From contig JBDRJF010000005.1 of the NCBI GenBank assembly GCA_043815185.1, forward strand, positions 3,407 to 67,406: a stretch of DNA of 64,000 nucleotides, read 5' to 3'. Both the position numbers and the translations under genes were made by a program. Source of the stretch: Candidatus Omnitrophota bacterium (GTDB lineage: Bacteria; Omnitrophota; Gorgyraeia; Duberdicusellales; 4484-171). Shown here piece after piece: positions 10,871 through 59,626 of this stretch (its first letter is position 1; each line of letters starts with the position of its first letter). The notes beneath the pieces were generated by a model. It searched no databases, had not been told where the DNA came from, and was given only the letters and a program-made list of their open reading frames with translations.

Positions 10871-10982
10871 TCTCTACTCCTAAATAAGAAAACCCACCAT
10901 AGTTCCAATCTTTGCCAAACTTTCGGCAACCCGGCTACTACTCCTTGAAAAAATTGTCTTTATGAATTCCCGGCTTTGCGCT

Positions 10983-10995
10983 CCGCCTTAGGCGG
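10983..10995. repeat. Short hairpin motif CCGCCTTAGGCGG (copy 1 of 2)
   Basis: The 13-nt string is identical to 30173-30185. 5-bp GC stem with a TTA loop. Lies in the leader region upstream of the pilin array. Confidence 0.5.
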
Positions 10996-11106
10996 ATTGC
11001 CTTTTTTGTTGCCTCCCCTAATTACCATATAACTATAACATAAATACCCGAAATATTGCAAGAAAAGAATCGGAAAACTCTGTCCTTTTTGAAAGCGCTT
11101 TAAATT

Positions 11107-12606: not shown

Positions 12607-12631
12607 CCGGTTGAGGCTAAGCCTCAACCGG
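12607..12631. repeat. REP palindrome copy 1 (CCGGTTGAGGCTAAGCCTCAACCGG)
   Basis: Perfect 25-nt palindrome in the yraN / 480-aa gene spacer. Confidence 0.9.
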
Positions 12632-14751: not shown

Positions 14752-14799
14752 CCGGTTGAGGCTAAGCCTCAACCGGTCTTTAAGCCTCAACCGGTCTTT
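14752..14799. repeat. REP palindrome copy 2 with a tandem half-site duplication
   Basis: CCGGTTGAGGCTAAGCCTCAACCGG at 14752-14776. The 18-nt unit aagcctcaaccggtcttt occurs twice in tandem (14764-14781 and 14782-14799). Abuts the dprA stop. Confidence 0.9.
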
Positions 14800-15676: not shown

Positions 15677-15692
15677 TTTGCTAACTTTTGAT

Positions 15693-15715
15693 CGGTTGAG
15701 GCTAAGCCTCAACCG
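15693..15715. repeat. REP palindrome copy 3
   Basis: CGGTTGAGGCTAAGCCTCAACCG, 8 nt downstream of the RAYT stop codon. Confidence 0.9.
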
Positions 15716-15723
15716 CACTCTTA

Positions 15724-16434: not shown

Positions 16435-16452
16435 TTAAGTTAGTTTAATGTG

Positions 16453-16475
16453 CGGTTGAGGCTAAGCCTCAACCG
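16453..16475. repeat. REP palindrome copy 4
   Basis: CGGTTGAGGCTAAGCCTCAACCG, 19 nt upstream of the RAYT start codon. Confidence 0.9.
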
Positions 16476-16534
16476 GGGGTGTTAAAAATATTGGGGGTGT
16501 CCTTTGTGGATAACCCCCAATAAAAATTTCGAAT

Positions 16535-17084: not shown

Positions 17085-17120
17085 CCCGGTTGAGGCTTAG
17101 CCTCAATAGCCTCAACCGGG
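17085..17120. repeat. REP palindrome copy 5 (opposite centre orientation, internal 9-nt duplication)
   Basis: CCCGGTTGAGGCTTAGCCTCAATAGCCTCAACCGGG: centre T instead of A, and agcctcaa is duplicated. Lies 9 nt downstream of the anti-sigma stop. Confidence 0.85.
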
Positions 17121-25187: not shown

Positions 25188-25778
25188 ATGAAAAAATCTC
25201 TAAATATAGTCTTAGATACTAGTATTTTTGTTAATCCTGATTCCCGAGTTCATTTCGGGAATACACCCAAGGCAGCTTTCTCTAATTTCTTAGACCACTT
25301 AAAGGATAAAAAACATATTAACTGCTATATCCCTCCCTCAGTATATGAAGAGTTAGCAAAATTCATCGAAAGATTACCCCCGGCAGATAAACTAATTTTA
25401 ATCAACAAAAAACCCCCTGCTTCTTATCAAACCCCGGTCCCAAGCTTATTAGTATATGAATTCATTGAGGAAATGCGCCTAAGAGTCAACAAAGGCCTGC
25501 GAATCGCTGAAAAATATGCCCATAAAGGAATAACCGTGGCCGGGGAGACTAATAAGGAAAAGTACGAAGAATTAATAAAAAGTCTGCGCGGTGAATACCG
25601 CAGTGCTCTGCGCGAAGGAATTATTGACAGCAAAGAAGATTTTGACTTAATCCTTCTGGCCAAAGAAATAAATGCTTATCTCGCTACCTCTGATCTGGGA
25701 TTGGTAAGGTGGGCTCAAAAGTTAGGCCTAACCTGCATCAACGCTTGGGAACTTAAAGAAATAGTGATTAAGCCTTAA
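25188..25778 (+). CDS. RNA-free (protein-only) RNase P of the HARP / UPF0278 PIN-like family
   Basis: 196 aa. [63 protein letters not shown] and [17 protein letters not shown] match blocks I recall from Aquifex Aq_880 and archaeal RNA-ligase-partner homologues ([46 protein letters not shown]). Confidence 0.75.
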   Translation: [196 protein letters not shown]

Positions 25779-26784
25779 TAATAGAGGTAACGATTTCGCG
25801 GGTAATATCCTGAATAGTGATTATTCCGTAAATTTTTCTGCCCTTTAAAACCAAAGCGATACTTTCTTTCTGGGACTTTAATTTTGTAAAAATTTTGTGA
25901 AGCTTATGATTAAAACCAACTTTGACTATCGGCCTTATAAATTGCTGCCAGCTTATTCCGCCTTGGTAAAATAAATCATAAATATTTACATAACCGATAA
26001 TTTCTTTATTCTTTCCTCCAGAGGTAGATCCGTCCTTTCGGCCTGAGGCTAAGGCTGGGGCTGGGGCGGAATATACCGGATAACGGGTAAAACGATATTG
26101 CTTAACCGTGGCCAGAATAGTTTTATAGGAGTCGGCATAGTCAAAAGCAATTATTTTTTTACCCCTGACACAAACATCTTTAATCCGTTCCCTTCTGAAT
26201 TCAAAAACTTCCTCAATCGCTTCTTTCTCGCCCCGGTCAATACCTCCTTGTTTCTCTATCTCTTTAACCAAAAATTTTATCTCCTCTTTAGTTACAAAAA
26301 AAGAGCGGGGCTTAGCCTTTCTTGCAAAAATTTTTACTAAAAACTTACTAACTGCTTCGATACTTTTTACAATCGGTAAGAATAATTTTTCGAAAAAACT
26401 AATTAAGCCTACTACTTGACAGCTAAAATCCTCCTTGAGGAAGCGGCCGATATTCTTAGGGATAAGTTCAGCAAAAATCACTACAATTGGCGTAAAGATA
26501 AAGGTAATCCATAGGTTGCTTAATCTTAAGCCCCGGTTAATTAGAAAAAAGGTAAGAAAACTAGTACTTAATACCAAAGATATGTTTGTCCCAACCAGGG
26601 TGGTAACCAAAAACCTATGGGGATTTAAGATAAACTCATAGACTTTCCCAGCTTTTCTATCGCCTTTATTCTGGCGATGCCGCAACTTAAGAGCCGGGGA
26701 AGAGATAAAACTTATCTCGCTGGCAGCAAAAAATCCCTGGAGGATAACGAAAATTAGGCAACTTAATAAGTATAAGTAAATCAT
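25768..26784 (-). CDS. CNNM/CorC-family DUF21 + CBS-pair membrane protein
   Basis: 338 aa. DUF21 TM region with the ASEISFIS motif, then a CBS pair. CBS1 is interrupted by SAPAPALASGRKDGSTSGG (see repeat 26047-26080). No CorC_HlyC C-terminal domain. Confidence 0.7.
   Translation of the reverse strand: MIYLYLLSCLIFVILQGFFAASEISFISSPALKLRHRQNKGDRKAGKVYEFILNPHRFLVTTLVGTNISLVLSTSFLTFFLINRGLRLSNLWITFIFTPIVVIFAELIPKNIGRFLKEDFSCQVVGLISFFEKLFLPIVKSIEAVSKFLVKIFARKAKPRSFFVTKEEIKFLVKEIEKQGGIDRGEKEAIEEVFEFRRERIKDVCVRGKKIIAFDYADSYKTILATVKQYRFTRYPVYSAPAPALASGRKDGSTSGGKNKEIIGYVNIYDLFYQGGISWQQFIRPIVKVGFNHKLHKIFTKLKSQKESIALVLKGRKIYGIITIQDITREIVTSIIKA
26047..26080 (-). repeat. GC-rich in-frame insertion, short member of an RPE-like family
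   Basis: Minus strand CCGCCCCAGCC-ccagccttagcc-TCAGGCCGAAA. Both 11-mers recur in the same order in bioC (58842-58908). Contains cttagcctca, also present in the REP. Confidence 0.55.
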
Positions 26785-26912: not shown

Positions 26913-28127
26913 TTATTTTTTCGCTTCTATTATTACGCTGACAATTCTTCTAGCCGTAGCCCGCTCTATGGTAAATTCTACTCTTTTGAATTTTAATTTT
27001 TCCCCTGACCGGGGTATTCTTTCCATTTGCGAAAGTAAGAACCCGGCAATAGTATCTTCTTGCTCAGGCAAGTTTAGGCCTAATTCTAAATTTACGGTTT
27101 TGATATTTGTCTTTCCATAAACCCTATAGCGTTTATCTTCTATAGATTCTATCTGCTCCTGAATGCTTTCAAATTCATCATAGATTTCCCCAAATATCTC
27201 CTCAATAATATCCTCGACAGTAATTAAACCTTCAGTTCCTCCATATTCATCTAAAACAATGGCAATTCTCTCATCTTTGGCTAAAAACAACTTTAAGATA
27301 TCGTCAATTCCTTTGCTTTCGGGAATAAATATCGGTTTATGCAAAAAGCCATGATAATCCTTATCGGGCTCAAGAAAAACATCTTTAGCGTAAAGAACGC
27401 CGACAATATTATCTAACGACCCCTCATATACAGGGAATTTAGAGTGTTTCCGCTTACGCAGAAAGCTTATTATATCTTTCTGGTTTAAGCTAGTATCAAT
27501 TCCCTGGATATCAATACGGGCCGTCAATATTTCACTGGCCTTAGTATCCTTAAACTCTAAAACATGGCTAATCATTTTTTCTTCCTGAGCCGAAATTTGG
27601 CCATCCTTCTTGCTTAAAAGAAGAGCACCCCTAAATTCTTCATCGCTTAAGGTGGATTTTTTAGGTTTACGGATAATCAGGGAAGAAAAAATCCTGGCTA
27701 TTCCTTCGATAGCAATAATAAAGGGAAAGAAGAGCCGGGAAAAGATATTTAAGAATGGGGCAAGGGTTAAAGATAACTTCTCTGCCGTATATATTGCTAT
27801 TGTCTTGGGAAAAATTTCGCCTAAAAACAAAATAAGTGTACCACTGGCTAAAACTGCTATAACCAGTCCGTTTTTCCCCCAAGCCTGAACCGAAATCGCT
27901 GTGGCTAAGGAAGCCAGGCTAATATTAACTAGCATATTTCCAAAAACAATAGCGGAAAGCAGGCGAGTAGGGCGCTGGAGTAGGCTTTTGATTATTTTTC
28001 CTTGAGGATATTTCGCAGTAATCCGGCGTAATTTTAAGTCACTGAGAGAAAAAATTGCTGTCTCAGAGCCGGAGAAGAAAGCTGAAAGTATAATAAAAAT
28101 TAAAAAGAGAGAAATATTAACTAACAT
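26913..28127 (-). CDS. CNNM/CorC-family protein (DUF21 + CBS pair + CorC_HlyC)
   Basis: 404 aa. GSETAIFSL motif, a CBS pair, and a C-terminal transporter-associated domain (RYRVYGKTNIKTVNLELGLNLPEQEDTIAGFLL...FTIERATARRI). Confidence 0.8.
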   Translation of the reverse strand: MLVNISLFLIFIILSAFFSGSETAIFSLSDLKLRRITAKYPQGKIIKSLLQRPTRLLSAIVFGNMLVNISLASLATAISVQAWGKNGLVIAVLASGTLILFLGEIFPKTIAIYTAEKLSLTLAPFLNIFSRLFFPFIIAIEGIARIFSSLIIRKPKKSTLSDEEFRGALLLSKKDGQISAQEEKMISHVLEFKDTKASEILTARIDIQGIDTSLNQKDIISFLRKRKHSKFPVYEGSLDNIVGVLYAKDVFLEPDKDYHGFLHKPIFIPESKGIDDILKLFLAKDERIAIVLDEYGGTEGLITVEDIIEEIFGEIYDEFESIQEQIESIEDKRYRVYGKTNIKTVNLELGLNLPEQEDTIAGFLLSQMERIPRSGEKLKFKRVEFTIERATARRIVSVIIEAKK

Positions 28128-30155: not shown

Positions 30156-30172
30156 ATCTCCTCCTCAATGAC

Positions 30173-30185
30173 CCGCCTTAGGCGG
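30173..30185. repeat. Short hairpin motif CCGCCTTAGGCGG (copy 2 of 2)
   Basis: Identical to 10983-10995. Sits in the 38-nt mnmE-folE spacer. Confidence 0.5.
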
Positions 30186-30193
30186 AGAATTGA

Positions 30194-31600
30194 TCATTTC
30201 CCAATACAAAAATTACTAAAAATACTCTCTAAAATCTCCTCAGAAATTACTTCTCCGCTAAGCCGGCCTAAATTATCTAAACACAACTTTAATTCTAGAT
30301 TCATAAAATCTATAGGCTGCCCTTCACCCAGGAAGGTCTTTACCTGTTTAAGGCTGACTCTTACCTTATCTAAAATCTGCTTCTGATAATGGCTAAGAAA
30401 AATAATGTTTTCCCGTCCTACCCCTTTTTTATAAACTACTCTGTAAATAGCCTTCTCTAAGCCAGCTAAACCTTTACCTTTTAAAGCGCTCATCTTCACT
30501 ATAACTGCTCCCGGCATCTCTCTTAAATCCAGGCGTTGGGATAAGTCGCTCTTATTTATTACGAAAATTACATTTTTGGCTTTTACTTTATCAAGGAGAA
30601 AAGAATCCTCGTTCCCTAAGCGGCGTGAGCCATCAAGAACTAAAATAACTAAATCGCTCTTCCGGAAAATATCTAAAGACTGCTTTAAAGCTTTCTTGGC
30701 TATTAAATCTTTGGGCTCTAAGATACCGGCCGTATCATAAATTCGAAGCGGCACACCTCTTATATTTATCGTCTCCTCAATTACATCACGGGTAGTGCCG
30801 GGTAATCGGCTCACAATAACCCTTTCTTTTTTGAGTAAACAATTAAACAGGGTGGATTTCCCGGCATTGGTCTTACCGCAGATAACACACTTAAGCCCCT
30901 CCCGCATAATTTCAGCTTCCTGGTAACCTTCAAGAAGATTAACTACCTCTTTCTCTATTTTAGCGATTTTTACTCCTAAGTCTAGCGGAACATCTTCAGC
31001 TACATCTTCGGGAAAATTCAGCCTACTCTCAGTCTCGATGAATAATTCTTTTATATTTTCCTTTAATCTCCTTATTTTTAAGGATGCCTGGCCTCTTAAT
31101 TGCCCGGCAGCCAAAACCAGAGTATCTTCACTCTTGGCCTCAATAATTCCTCGAATGCTCTCAGCTTGGAGCAGATCAATTCTCCCCCTCACTAAAGCTC
31201 GATAGGTAAACTCACCCGGCAGAGCCAGCCGAGCTCCGGATTTCAAAGATATCTCTAAAATCTTATTTACTACCGCAGCTCCTCCATGGGAAGATATCTC
31301 AACCACATCTTCCCGGGTATAAGTTGAGGGTTTACGCATGATGCTCAATAAAACTTCATCTATTATTTCCTCCCTCTTTTTTCTCCCCTTAGCTTTCTCT
31401 ATAATCCACCCATAGTGAAGAGTGTAGGTCCTGGCCTCTTTTATATTCTTTTTTCTGGCTGGCTTAAATATTTTAGCGGCGATTGTTAAAGCTTTGTTGC
31501 CGGACAGCTTAATTACTCCCAGAGCTGATTTACCGGGGAAAGTGGCAATAGCCGCAATAGTGTCCCCTACTTTGTAGTCCTTTAATCTAAATTCTCTCAT
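30194..31600 (-). CDS. mnmE: tRNA modification GTPase MnmE
   Basis: 468 aa. N-terminal DTIAAIAT, G-domain GKTNAGKSTLFN / DTAG, C-terminal FCIGK. Confidence 0.9.
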   Translation of the reverse strand: MREFRLKDYKVGDTIAAIATFPGKSALGVIKLSGNKALTIAAKIFKPARKKNIKEARTYTLHYGWIIEKAKGRKKREEIIDEVLLSIMRKPSTYTREDVVEISSHGGAAVVNKILEISLKSGARLALPGEFTYRALVRGRIDLLQAESIRGIIEAKSEDTLVLAAGQLRGQASLKIRRLKENIKELFIETESRLNFPEDVAEDVPLDLGVKIAKIEKEVVNLLEGYQEAEIMREGLKCVICGKTNAGKSTLFNCLLKKERVIVSRLPGTTRDVIEETINIRGVPLRIYDTAGILEPKDLIAKKALKQSLDIFRKSDLVILVLDGSRRLGNEDSFLLDKVKAKNVIFVINKSDLSQRLDLREMPGAVIVKMSALKGKGLAGLEKAIYRVVYKKGVGRENIIFLSHYQKQILDKVRVSLKQVKTFLGEGQPIDFMNLELKLCLDNLGRLSGEVISEEILESIFSNFCIGK

Positions 31601-50514: not shown

Positions 50515-51983
50515 TCTTCCTGGGGGATATCAGAAATTACCTTGCCAATCCAGCTCCAAATATCATTACGCTGGACATTCTGCCGTAGTTTCCTCATTAT
50601 TTTTTTCTTTTGGTCCTCATTCATGGTAAGGGTTTTATAAATAGCCGCACTTACTTCCTCAGGATGGTAGGGGTTAATCGATATAGCATCGGTCAACTCT
50701 CTGCTGGCTCCGGTGAAACGGCTTAAGATTAGTGCTCCTTTTTCTCTTGTATTAGCTGAGATAAATTCTTTAGCCACAAGGTTCATCCCATCATGTAAAG
50801 AACTAACCACGCAAATATCAGCTATTTTGTAAAAAGCCAAGACTTCTTTAAAAGTAAGATGTCTCCTTAAGAAAATTATTGGTTTCCAAAGTTTCTGAGA
50901 ATGTTTAAAATTTACCTCCTCTACCCGGGCATTGACCCTCTCATTAAGTTGCTTATATTGGAGAATATGGATGCGGGAAATTTCACCCATCTGAATAAAA
51001 ATTATCTTTTCTTTTAGCTCCGGATGGGTATCTAAGAGCTTATCGATTGCATTTATTCTTTCTACAATACCTTTGGTATAATCTATCCGGTCTAAGCCAA
51101 TTATTACTTTATAGCCTTCTAGGTCAAATTCCTCTCTAAGTAATTGGGCTAAGTTTTCCACCTCAGTATCATCGGAAGTCTTACTTATACCTTTAAAATC
51201 AACACTTATCGGGTAGTCCCTTACTAAAGAGGTGTGTTTTTGATGTACGATTAATTGTTTTTCATTGTCGATCTTAGCCTCAACTTCATTAGCTACGGCA
51301 TCGAAGAAATTATTGCAGAAGTATCTTATCTGAAATCCTAAAAGATCGTAAGAGAGTATCCCTTCTAACAACTCCTGACGCTGAGGCAGAATTCGAAAAA
51401 CATCATAGGTAGGCCAAGGAATGTGCCAGAAAAGAAGGGTAACTACCTGAGGATTCATCTCTTTTAAATAATTACTGACTAAAGCCAGGTGGTAATCCTG
51501 TACAAAAACAATTGCTTTCTTATCCTTTATCTCTTTACTGATATTTTGAGCAAACTTCTTATTTACCTGTTTATAAATTTTCCAATCTTCATTCTTAAAC
51601 TCCGGCTTCATGAAAACTAAGTGCGAAAGCGGCCAAAGCCCCTGATTAGAGTATCCAAAGTAATAACCTAAATTTTCGGCCTTACTTAACCAGACATATT
51701 TTAGCTCATAAGACGGATTATCCGGCGGAACCTTTATTTTCGAGTTCTTTACCACCAACCGATCAGCATCACCGCTGCCACAGCAAACCCACAGCCCGCC
51801 CAGCTCCTGCATAATCGGGTCTAAGGCCGTAACTACCCCGCCGGGACCGCGAGTGCACTCAATTTTTCCCCGGGACAACTTATGGATATAGGGCTGGCGG
51901 TTGGAGGCTACTACAAAGGCATAGTCAGAAAGCTTACCCTTTACTAGTTCTAAAACTGATTTCTTATCCCAAACTTTTAGCAT
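50511..51983 (-). CDS. otsA: Alpha,alpha-trehalose-phosphate synthase
   Basis: 490 aa GT20. VASNRQPY, NQGLWPLSH, VQDYHL, SLHDGMNLVAKEF, LILSRFTGA. Confidence 0.9.
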   Translation of the reverse strand: MLKVWDKKSVLELVKGKLSDYAFVVASNRQPYIHKLSRGKIECTRGPGGVVTALDPIMQELGGLWVCCGSGDADRLVVKNSKIKVPPDNPSYELKYVWLSKAENLGYYFGYSNQGLWPLSHLVFMKPEFKNEDWKIYKQVNKKFAQNISKEIKDKKAIVFVQDYHLALVSNYLKEMNPQVVTLLFWHIPWPTYDVFRILPQRQELLEGILSYDLLGFQIRYFCNNFFDAVANEVEAKIDNEKQLIVHQKHTSLVRDYPISVDFKGISKTSDDTEVENLAQLLREEFDLEGYKVIIGLDRIDYTKGIVERINAIDKLLDTHPELKEKIIFIQMGEISRIHILQYKQLNERVNARVEEVNFKHSQKLWKPIIFLRRHLTFKEVLAFYKIADICVVSSLHDGMNLVAKEFISANTREKGALILSRFTGASRELTDAISINPYHPEEVSAAIYKTLTMNEDQKKKIMRKLRQNVQRNDIWSWIGKVISDIPQEE

Positions 51984-58745: not shown

Positions 58746-58760
58746 TTACCTACAATAGTG

Positions 58761-58783
58761 CGGTTGAGGCTTAGCCTCAACCG
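58761..58783. repeat. REP palindrome copy 6 (centre T orientation)
   Basis: CGGTTGAGGCTTAGCCTCAACCG in the bioC-bioD spacer, 41 kb from the other copies. Confidence 0.9.
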
Positions 58784-58792
58784 GCTTCAGAC

Positions 58793-59626
58793 CTATTTAG
58801 TACCTCGGCAAAAGAAAATTTGATAGGTAGCCACTATATTTTTTCGGCCTGAGTCTTCAGTCAAAGGCTGACCAGCCTCTGGTTGGGACCAGCCTTTGGC
58901 TGGGGCGGGAAACTTCTTCTTATAAATCTCTTCTATTGAAGCTACCTTCTGGGGAGTCCAGAAAATTTCCCCTTTTAAGCCATCACCTCTTGTCCCGGTA
59001 CATCTTAGGTTCTCTAATAGCTCTAGCAATGAGTTATAATTCTGATTATAAACCTCTTCTTTTACTTCAACCTCACTAAAAATAGCTTTTAATATCCCCT
59101 CTAATTTTTCCTTGCCCAAAAAATTACTGGCAGTTATCGCAAGAGGCTTACCGAGAAACTCTTCCAGGCAACTATGCAACTGGGAAAAAGTCTCAGGCCC
59201 AAAGGTAGAGAATAAAATAAAACCTCCTCTTTTAAGGGCTTGCTTGTATCTTATTAAGTCTGATTTCAAATCCTGAAACCACTGGAAACTAGCATTAGAA
59301 CTTATAAGATCAAACTCTTCTTCCAGGTTAAGGCTTTCAGCATCAGCAACAATGAATTCTATCCTCTCATCCCCGAGCTTTTCCTTGGCAACTTCAATCA
59401 TCTTGGCTGATATATCTACAGCTTTTATCTTCGCTTTTGGAAATTTATCTCTGAGAAGCTTGGTATAATTTCCGGTTCCGCAGCCAATATCTAAAATATT
59501 ATTATATCGATTACTATCAATTTCATTAATAAGCCGAGAAGCACAAAGGTTCTGAACCCTTGAATGCTGATCATAATCCCGGGCATGTTTTGAGAAGTTT
59601 TCTTCGATTATTCTTTTATCGATCAT
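58793..59626 (-). CDS. bioC: Malonyl-ACP O-methyltransferase
   Basis: 277 aa. SAM motif ILDIGCGTGNYT; position in the bio operon. The C-terminal region carries an extra ~20 aa, PAPAKGWSQPEAGQPLTEDSGR (see repeat 58842-58908). Confidence 0.8.
   Translation of the reverse strand: MIDKRIIEENFSKHARDYDQHSRVQNLCASRLINEIDSNRYNNILDIGCGTGNYTKLLRDKFPKAKIKAVDISAKMIEVAKEKLGDERIEFIVADAESLNLEEEFDLISSNASFQWFQDLKSDLIRYKQALKRGGFILFSTFGPETFSQLHSCLEEFLGKPLAITASNFLGKEKLEGILKAIFSEVEVKEEVYNQNYNSLLELLENLRCTGTRGDGLKGEIFWTPQKVASIEEIYKKKFPAPAKGWSQPEAGQPLTEDSGRKNIVATYQIFFCRGTK
58842..58908 (-). repeat. GC-rich palindromic in-frame insertion, long member of an RPE-like family
   Basis: Minus strand CCGCCCCAGCC-aaaggctggtcccaaccagaggctggtcagcctttgactgaagac-TCAGGCCGAAA. 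Internal 9-bp stem caaaggctg/cagcctttg with a nested accag/ctggt. Same end 11-mers as 26047-26080. Confidence 0.6.

Follow-up and report, generated by a model that had tools for sequence, protein, structure and literature searches.

What is the additional stretch of sequence that interrupts a conserved domain in a small transporter gene of a Candidatus Omnitrophota bacterium, and how did it come to be there? The gene belongs to the CNNM/CorC family and lies in a 64,000-nt stretch of contig JBDRJF010000005.1 (hereafter the window, always meaning the whole stretch). A preliminary description of the window had placed in the first CBS domain (CBS1) of the encoded protein a 34-nt element at 26047-26080, consisting of two termini around a 12-nt core, related to an insertion in bioC of the same window and possibly derived from a repetitive extragenic palindromic (REP) sequence. 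We find at this place an insertion of 57 nt, which is likely to be the fossil of a very small non-autonomous mobile element, a 30-bp double-hairpin module. The gene and the insertion are as follows.

25768-26784, minus strand: short CNNM/CorC-family gene of 338 amino acids with a DUF21 transmembrane domain and a CBS pair, defined by its open reading frame (ORF), Pfam and homologs.
26014-26070, minus strand: whole in-frame insertion of 57 nt, adding the 19-residue peptide SAPAPALASGRKDGSTSGG, DNA TCCGCCCCAGCCCCAGCCTTAGCCTCAGGCCGAAAGGACGGATCTACCTCTGGAGGA, between TAT (Tyr) and AAG (Lys), delimited by the empty site in L001.

The gene has the layout of its family, a DUF21/CNNM transmembrane domain followed by a CBS pair, and NCBI has a protein with 100% identity to its product, from a metagenome-assembled genome (MAG) of Ca. 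Omnitrophota; 249 homologs were retrieved. Pfam recognized the CNNM domain with an E value of 3e-36, CBS2 only below the cut-off and CBS1 not at all, CBS1 being masked from Pfam by the insert. The protein aligns over residues 10-332 with the solved archaeal CorB (7m1t), leaving a 17-residue gap at the insert site. In an AlphaFold model built with 35 homologs, residues 242-259 have a predicted local distance difference test score (pLDDT) below 50 and fall between the strands 234-238 (RYPVY) and 262-267 (EIIGYV), which places the insert, in the model, in the turn of the CBS1 beta-hairpin.

The closest available genome (GCA_964455085.1, locus L001), in which the gene order is conserved, encodes a CorC ortholog with 94% identity over the aligned residues. 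Its DNA at the site reads CCG GTA TAT^AAG AAT AAA (here and below, the caret marks the insertion point), and the window has exactly 57 extra bases there. Insert-free orthologs are mostly 319 amino acids long. Some 90 orthologs could be scored; 60 with a readable site have no insert, and an ortholog set of 87 comprised 66 with no insert or fewer than 4 residues and 21 with an insert of at least 4 residues. Because the closest genome has clean empty sites, most orthologs are insert free and CorB shows a gap, the 57 nt are best read as an insertion relative to an empty ancestral site and not as an ancestral loop. The in-frame insertion within the CBS1 loop that had first been proposed is thus borne out by the empty sites, and the peptide and DNA quoted for it are found on the minus strand. 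Its position and extent, however, need correction. The quoted string CCGCCCCAGCC-ccagccttagcc-TCAGGCCGAAA is at 26036-26069, a shift of about 11 nt, and the range originally given takes in 10 bases of flank and, of the insert, no more than its 5' part; comparison with the empty site of the closest relative gives 57 nt (26014-26070) instead of 34 nt.

Comparison with copies from other genomes resolves the insert into two kinds of module. An outer, or A-type, module of 30 nt has the consensus TCCGCC-AAA-GGCGGA followed by TCCGCC-TCT-GGCGGA, read SAKGGSASGG, in which two GC-rich arms of 6 nt, complementary to each other and separated by a 3-nt loop, make a unit that occurs twice; the module is also a near-perfect 30-bp palindrome centred on GGATCC. 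An inner, or B-type, module, CCAGCC-AAA-GGCTGG followed by TCAGCC-TCA-GGCCGA, has the same architecture with other arms. The window CorC insert divides accordingly into three parts, given in reading order.

26065-26070, minus strand: 5' arm TCCGCC of the outer module, recognized from intact modules in L008, L010 and L009 and from 134 copies elsewhere.
26038-26064, minus strand: 27-nt B-type remnant CCAGCC CCAGCC TTAGCC TCA GGCCGA in loop 1 of the outer module, recognized from intact nested homologs.
26014-26037, minus strand: loop 1 and 3' part of the outer module, AAG-GACGGA followed by TCTACC-TCT-GGAGGA, recognized from the consensus of the outer module.

As judged by this alignment, the insert is a composite, with a B-type module nested in the first loop of an A-type module (A[B] below). 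Intact nested homologs of the A[B] composite occur in bioC at L009, in an RtcB-like gene at L150 and in a CorC paralog at L008. In the window copy, the B-type remnant holds a 6-nt slippage duplication (CCAGCC x 2.5 at 26053-26067 by Tandem Repeats Finder, TRF), and the outer 3' part has 4 mismatches to GGCGGA followed by TCCGCC-TCT-GGCGGA. A simple tandem repeat was ruled out for the insert as a whole, as the TRF array covers 15 nt (the 6-nt unit x 2.5) of the 57 nt. No Rfam family matched 25900-26200 at an E value of 1 or less.

The termini singled out in the preliminary description do recur at the bioC insertion, in the same order, strand and reading frame (PAPA...SGRK). An exact CCGCCCCAGCC occurs in the window only at 26059-26069 and 58898-58908 (with at most 1 mismatch, there are 3 matches against 0.41 expected, and 0 of 100 shuffles reach 3), and an exact TCAGGCCGAAA only at 26036-26046 and 58842-58852, a count that again none of 100 shuffles reached. 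They are not, however, the ends of an element: CCGCC-CCAGCC and TCAGGCCGA-AA are junctions of the outer and inner modules, and no 12-nt core exists.

When folded as single-stranded DNA and compared with shuffled sequences, intact modules and composites gave z scores of -4.5, -3.9 and -4.3, the bioC copy of the window gave an intermediate value of -2.5, and the window CorC copy gave +1.7. Because its folding is no better than that of shuffles, we regard the window CorC copy as a decayed relic. Having lost its hairpins, this old copy is probably neutral, a disordered loop without present function.

Two further sites of the window, one filled and one empty, bear on the same modules.

58793-59626, minus strand: bioC gene.
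58844-58909, minus strand: in-frame insertion of 66 nt in bioC, PAPAKGWSQPEAGQPLTEDSGR; the empty site AGA TTT^AAA AAT is found in L168, the bioC locus of the same MAG as L001.
26985-26990, minus strand: empty hotspot ttc^aaa (break between 26988 and 26987), the F^K of KLKF^KRVEF, in the CNNM-CorC_HlyC paralog (26913-28127), read from the window sequence.

The bioC insert of the window consists of an outer 5' arm, CCCGCC, and a B-type module with a 17-nt tandem duplication (by TRF, a 17-nt unit x 2.1 forming a 35-nt array within the 66 nt), the outer 3' half having been lost. Parts of the A[B] composite are thus present at both loci, which upholds the kinship first proposed for the two insertions. 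Empty BioC orthologs have 255 amino acids and the site KRF^KNIVATY, and the same site is filled in various orthologs by SASGG, SAKGGSTSGG, PAEGGSASGG, SAPAKGWSASGRKGGSASGG and others. At this site, L010 has nearly the A-type 30 nt, and L009 has the full composite, in which TCCGCC is followed by the nested CCAGCC-AAA-GGCTGG and TCAGCC-TCA-GGCCGA and then by AAA-GGCGGA and TCCGCC-TCA-GGCGGA. The paralog lacks an insertion at the equivalent CBS loop, as had been noted before, and its own hotspot is filled in relatives by 15 nt (L004, 5535-5549), 30 nt (L006, 2114-2143) or a nested 90 nt (L008, 212-301). A metagenome scan with the termini of the preliminary description, separated by a gap of 15-45 nt, gave 32 matches, of which 3 were real and most were chance occurrences in GC-rich contigs; among the 3 were the perfect composite in the RtcB-like gene (L150, VEEIF^SAPARGWSASGRKGGSASGG^DEEE) and a copy in a ValRS-like gene. 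The B-type module alone was found at L117 and L088, one a Komeilibacteria and the other an Omnitrophota contig. On these alignments, then, CorC, CorC paralog, BioC, RtcB-like and ValRS-like genes all carry the 30-nt module or the A[B] composite in frame.

How far the module extends was assessed with a scan of one genome per species (596 Gb) for a 21-nt sub-pattern of the outer module, for which we estimated about 4 chance hits. At least 120 genome stretches matched, and all the matches listed are from MAGs. Going by the titles under which submitters deposited these MAGs, the hosts among the matches listed include many Patescibacteria classes, Omnitrophota, Kiritimatiellae, Lentisphaerae, Verrucomicrobiota, Planctomycetota, Elusimicrobia and Ignavibacteria/Bacteroidota, together with uncultured Gammaproteobacteria, Chloroflexota, Melainabacteria, Margulisiibacteriota and a Desulfotomaculaceae, and the G+C content of the loci ranges from 33% to 69%. 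By its sequence, the insertion family is not specific to this genome but occurs in many bacterial phyla. The prediction of further copies was correct, as they are present in other genes and other genomes; most CorC orthologs lack the loop, and the termini recur elsewhere. The 8-kb flanks hold further copies, with a density of about 2.7 hairpins per 100 kb that suggests tens of module copies per genome.

The copy statistics that follow refer to the usable copies (134 or 136) among the matches listed. Of 134 copies, 110 have exactly TCCGCC as 5' arm, a part that the 21-nt sub-pattern did not cover, and loop 1 is variable (AAA 38, GAA 27, AGA 13, GGA 12 and others), a pattern in which arms are kept while loops vary. 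A T at position -2 (91/134) and an A at +2 (113/134) point to a target of roughly TTN^AAA. No target-site duplication was seen in pairs of empty and filled sites or in the flank logo, and a hidden 3-bp duplication, in which loop 1 would equal the right flank (AAG/AAG in the window and L010), was rejected, with 19 of 194 identical against 15.9 expected.

Coding sequence, taken as a longest spanning open frame of at least 120 codons, holds 103 of the 136 copies (about 75%), and about a quarter lie outside genes. Phase 0, on either strand, accounts for 83 of the 103 coding copies (about 80%), with Phe before the module in 30 of 71 phase-0 copies and Lys after it in 35 of 71. The genes hit include those for AHCY, AspRS, a ValRS-like enzyme, PurC, Mfd, RarA and triosephosphate isomerase. 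The module is nearly absent from viruses: across 2.9 million viral contigs the 30-mer had 1 hit, and neither the INPHARED phages nor the PLSDB plasmids matched. Phage carriage was rejected on account of this near-absence and of the termini of the preliminary description, which had no viral hit. We also noted a non-coding sub-family (L019, L033, L054, L059, L122 and L129) of the form TCCGCC-AC...(9-31 nt)...GGCGGATCCGCC-TCN-GGCGGA. The loop of its first hairpin is long and AT-rich, in some copies with TATAAT-like motifs; 4 of its 6 members are from Omnitrophota, and L129 is from Kerfeldbacteria (Patescibacteria).

These data bear on whether the insert could have arisen on the spot: at an AT-rich site, slippage during replication or a switch of template might build up palindromes, and the likeness of copies at different loci would then be convergent. 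Slippage has clearly acted inside copies (the 6-nt unit x 2.5 and the 17-nt unit x 2.1), and the number of units at one site varies, giving 15, 30, 60 or 90 nt. Local origin would nevertheless have to yield an identical 30-mer in unrelated genes and phyla across the G+C range of 33% to 69%, to generate a sequence of 70% G+C without a template in AT-rich flanks, and to hold the arms invariant while the loops vary. The G+C content of the window is about 40%. Already disfavoured, this explanation seems to us very improbable.

That all genome hits come from MAGs, and that palindromes can confuse assemblers, raises the question of an assembly or sequencing artefact. However, different samples and assemblers independently gave the same filled alleles (L006/L007 and L004/L005), the frame is maintained with a strong phase-0 bias, decayed and nested variants exist, and there are copies in the interior of long contigs. 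We therefore attach practically no weight to an artefact.

The CorC site itself is a hotspot that has changed state repeatedly. On a neighbour-joining tree of the 87 CorC orthologs, with the insert removed before alignment, parsimony requires at least 16 gains or losses. Remnants of all sizes (SG, ASGG, SASGG and SAKGAVGG) are present at the site, as is the complete module in L008, with the two tandem 15-nt hairpins TCCGCC-AAA-GGCGGA and TCCGCC-TCT-GGCGGA. In L164 the module is reversed at the identical nucleotide (^TCCGCC-TTT-GGCGGA, read SSGGRSAFGG), and this reverse copy is, from its orientation and position, to be read as an independent insertion.

Such reuse of one site could also be expected of a functional, selected loop, kept or lost by lineage, that acts either as a flexible linker adjusting how the CBS pair senses nucleotides or, in the mRNA, as a hairpin setting the pace of translation. 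The location within a regulatory domain and the stronger conservation of arms than of loops across copies would agree with this. The same module is found, however, in unrelated enzymes and, for about a quarter of the copies, outside genes; the window copy has no hairpin potential and is predicted to be disordered, the closest relatives have no insert, and remnants of every length (SG, ASGG, SASGG) occur. A selected function therefore has, in our view, little to recommend it as an explanation.

An independent test was made in a lineage of the candidate phyla radiation (CPR) with PurC, where 115 of 120 orthologs of a Doudnabacteria protein read EKTDF^KNLGE and 5 carry the module at F^K; the site is clean and empty in L167 and filled in L166. 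In 4 of the 5 filled alleles (L085, 2170-3171, and L166, 1501-2484, compared with L167, 1501-2433) a 6-nt tandem duplication 3 bases downstream of the module turns KNL into KNLNL. It occurs in two subclades with diverged flanking DNA and may be an insertion by-product or a compensating change. In the Kiritimatiellae MAG STD1_155 (two copies at L015, and copies at L062 and L013), the module is the end of a repeat of about 190 nt with at least 3 copies at 97% identity; this repeat has taken in the module or is built on it. Around these clustered copies, the search for a larger autonomous element returned only this gene-free repeat ending in the module.

These observations can be turned towards spread by recombination instead of transposition. 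The module could be the core site or scar of a site-specific recombinase, with two 12-bp arms around a GGATCC spacer, that remains once a larger element has been excised, or it could spread by homing-like gene conversion, a filled allele converting empty alleles after a cut at TTT^AAA. An arm-spacer-arm palindrome that makes no target duplication fits this proposal, as do the clean empty sites beside old filled alleles, the extra duplication just downstream of the module in PurC and the Kiritimatiellae repeat. On the other hand, the module lies in many unrelated genes with unrelated flanks and so must be able to reach new loci, the DNA flanks of the two filled PurC subclades have diverged, so that there is no common conversion tract, no larger element bounded by two modules was seen, and the nesting of one module in the loop of another is not expected of recombinase scars. 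We consider recombination a possible but unlikely means of spread.

Our preference is for a mobile 30-bp double-hairpin module of which the window insert is a fossil. At the level of DNA sequence, the alleles compared demonstrate mobility, insertion in both orientations, nesting in loop 1, hotspot turnover and filtering for phase-0 copies. Several module copies also lie at contig ends, which is what repeats would be expected to do. In the history that we propose, an A-type module would have landed between a Tyr or Phe codon and a Lys codon (T-T/A-Y^A-A-R) in the beta-hairpin of CBS1, its AAA loop would then have received a further module, of the B type, and point mutation and slippage would later have caused the decay of the copy. 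As the module is 30 nt long, most of its common variants lack stop codons and a Ser/Ala/Gly-rich peptide is read in phase 0 whichever the orientation, translation of the insertion would give a surface loop that is disordered and tolerated by the transporter. We infer that movement is catalysed in trans by an enzyme that recognizes the hairpin or the palindrome, and this enzyme would most plausibly act on single-stranded or extruded DNA, as with REP/IS200-type elements.

Several points weigh against this proposal. No transposase or other mobilising gene was found in the 64 kb available, in which no systematic search was made. No element whose transposition mechanism is known is as short as this module of 30 nt, and the module has neither the GTAG/CGTC tags of REPs nor the cleavage and guide spacers of IS200/IS605 ends. 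Near-identity across phyla is hard to explain by ordinary transposition with vertical descent, and the host taxonomy is that of the MAG titles. Finally, old copies in the window stand beside perfectly clean sites in the sister genome, and precise excision or allele replacement by recombination is therefore needed.

We lean slightly towards a broader claim, that the window copy is one fossil of a cross-phylum and apparently undescribed superfamily of 30-bp double-hairpin mobile modules. Its members would have two arm variants, a 6-3-6/6-3-6 layout with AAA and TCN loops and a TTN^AAA target; they would insert without duplication, in either orientation and into one another, and would add in-frame loops of the SAKGGSASGG type to housekeeping enzymes in Patescibacteria, Omnitrophota, PVC phyla and others. 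If true, this would imply that a mobilising activity is shared widely or that the sequence is regenerated each time from a conserved template.

Several known systems resemble the module in part. Rickettsia palindromic elements (RPEs) are about 100-150 bp long, carry a CGTC tag and are known from Rickettsia only (Ogata et al. 2000, summarised in PMC3733652). Like the module, they are palindromic in-frame insertions at polymorphic sites that add a surface peptide while the genes stay functional, but the module has 30 bp, another sequence and hosts in many phyla, and by size and host it does not belong to them. The second comparison is with REPs and REPINs and their RAYT transposases, which are IS200/IS605-like Y1 HUH enzymes (PMC3733652, PMC3116915, PMC2817692). 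These are also short GC-rich hairpins, often paired, without target duplication, sometimes intragenic and presumed to move as single strands. REPs, however, lie mostly outside genes, are limited to a species or genus and bear a GTAG or CGTC tag, whereas the module is found across phyla and about 75% of its copies are in ORFs (103 of 136 in stop-free spans of at least 120 codons, and both window copies intragenic). No link to a RAYT was established from the 64 kb of this genome and the 8-kb fragments of the others. It is also tagless: the 134 copies end in TCCGCC/GGCGGA with T-rich and A-rich flanks and have no GTAG or CGTC.

[quoted passage not shown] Small dispersed repeats (SDRs) of heterocyst-forming cyanobacteria (Elhai et al. 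2008) are reportedly mobile, shorter than 30 nt, partly palindromic and nested, and lie within coding and RNA genes that they do not destroy. Compared by description and not by the SDR1-8 consensus sequences, they behave like the module in their nesting and in their tolerated intragenic copies; they differ in their restricted host range and other sequences, and the preference for a Phe^Lys junction and the fixed peptide are unreported for SDRs. The GC clusters of yeast mitochondria (GC42) and the double-hairpin elements of Allomyces (Paquin et al. 2000, cited there) have an AG target duplication, conserved stems and variable loops (PMC4478555). They share with the module a high G+C content, a length of 30-80 bp, AT-rich host genomes, conserved stems with variable loops and polymorphic sites, but they are organellar and make the AG duplication, whereas the module is bacterial, makes none and has a TTN^AAA target.

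Full-text searches of the literature by organism, concept and exact DNA or peptide strings turned up primers and synthetic linkers but no description of the module. That small palindromic repeats can persist within genes is already known, but those cases (Rickettsia RPEs, a few REPs and cyanobacterial SDRs) are lineage specific; new here is a 30-bp module almost invariant across phyla that have little in common beyond their habitat and being uncultured, and one that has entered the same codon junctions many times over. If confirmed, its mobilising mechanism would be either extremely common or exchanged horizontally between bacteria of groundwater and sediment. The module would also provide a natural catalogue of permissive loop sites in essential enzymes and strain-level markers for the host organisms, and it would explain odd Ser/Ala/Gly insertions of 10-20 residues that break domain detection in MAG proteins, as when Pfam misses CBS1 both in the window CorC protein and in its identical NCBI record. 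For the window CorC itself the consequence is modest: on the CBS module of this Mg2+ transporter, the insert most likely forms a loop that is disordered and neutral.

Both module copies of the window are on the same strand. The genes examined (24-29.5 kb and 58-60.3 kb) are all on the minus strand except for a few small ORFs, GC skew is negative across the whole window (cumulative -3.95), and the window probably lies within one replichore. A further 30-nt hairpin insertion, GATCAATTC-TCCGCC-TAA-GGCGGG-TCATTG, is present at 30166-30195 (minus strand) in the short mnmE-folE spacer; it is absent from L001 and L004, provides the mnmE stop codon and stands just before the folE ribosome-binding site. 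Its TCCGCC/GGCGG arms are those of the A-type module, and its family membership is uncertain. The sole Rfam hit in the window is a c-di-GMP-I (cyclic di-GMP) riboswitch match at 10922-11011 (minus strand), with 35.5 bits against a gathering score of 35; the hairpin TCCGCC-TTA-GGCGGA at 10982-10996 was considered as a module copy and rejected, as it is a stem of this riboswitch. Direct repeats of 64-144 nt with 60-84% identity (families D1 and D3) at 47-692 probably belong to a repeat-containing gene.

The window also holds a separate REP-like palindrome, CCGGTTGAGGCT(A/T)AGCCTCAACCGG, which occurs six times.

12607-12631: REP-like palindrome.
14752-14776: REP-like palindrome, with a partial copy at 14781-14798.
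15692-15716: REP-like palindrome.
16452-16476: REP-like palindrome.
17085-17107: REP-like palindrome.
58760-58784: REP-like palindrome.

The preliminary description had taken a shared 10-mer, CTTAGCCTCA, as a hint that the CorC insert derives from this palindrome. The 10-mer is indeed common to both, but the derivation is not supported: related copies of the insert read TCAGCC-TCA-GGCCGA in that stretch, the 10-mer makes up loop and 3' arm in the palindrome but 5' arm and loop in the insert, and it occurs by chance in ordinary coding sequence of an unrelated gene at 51273. Downstream of bioC, the palindrome has 2 copies in L168, 1 in L010 and 0 in L009. Because its presence varies in this way at matching places in relatives, we regard it as a second, separate polymorphic hairpin family in the lineage.

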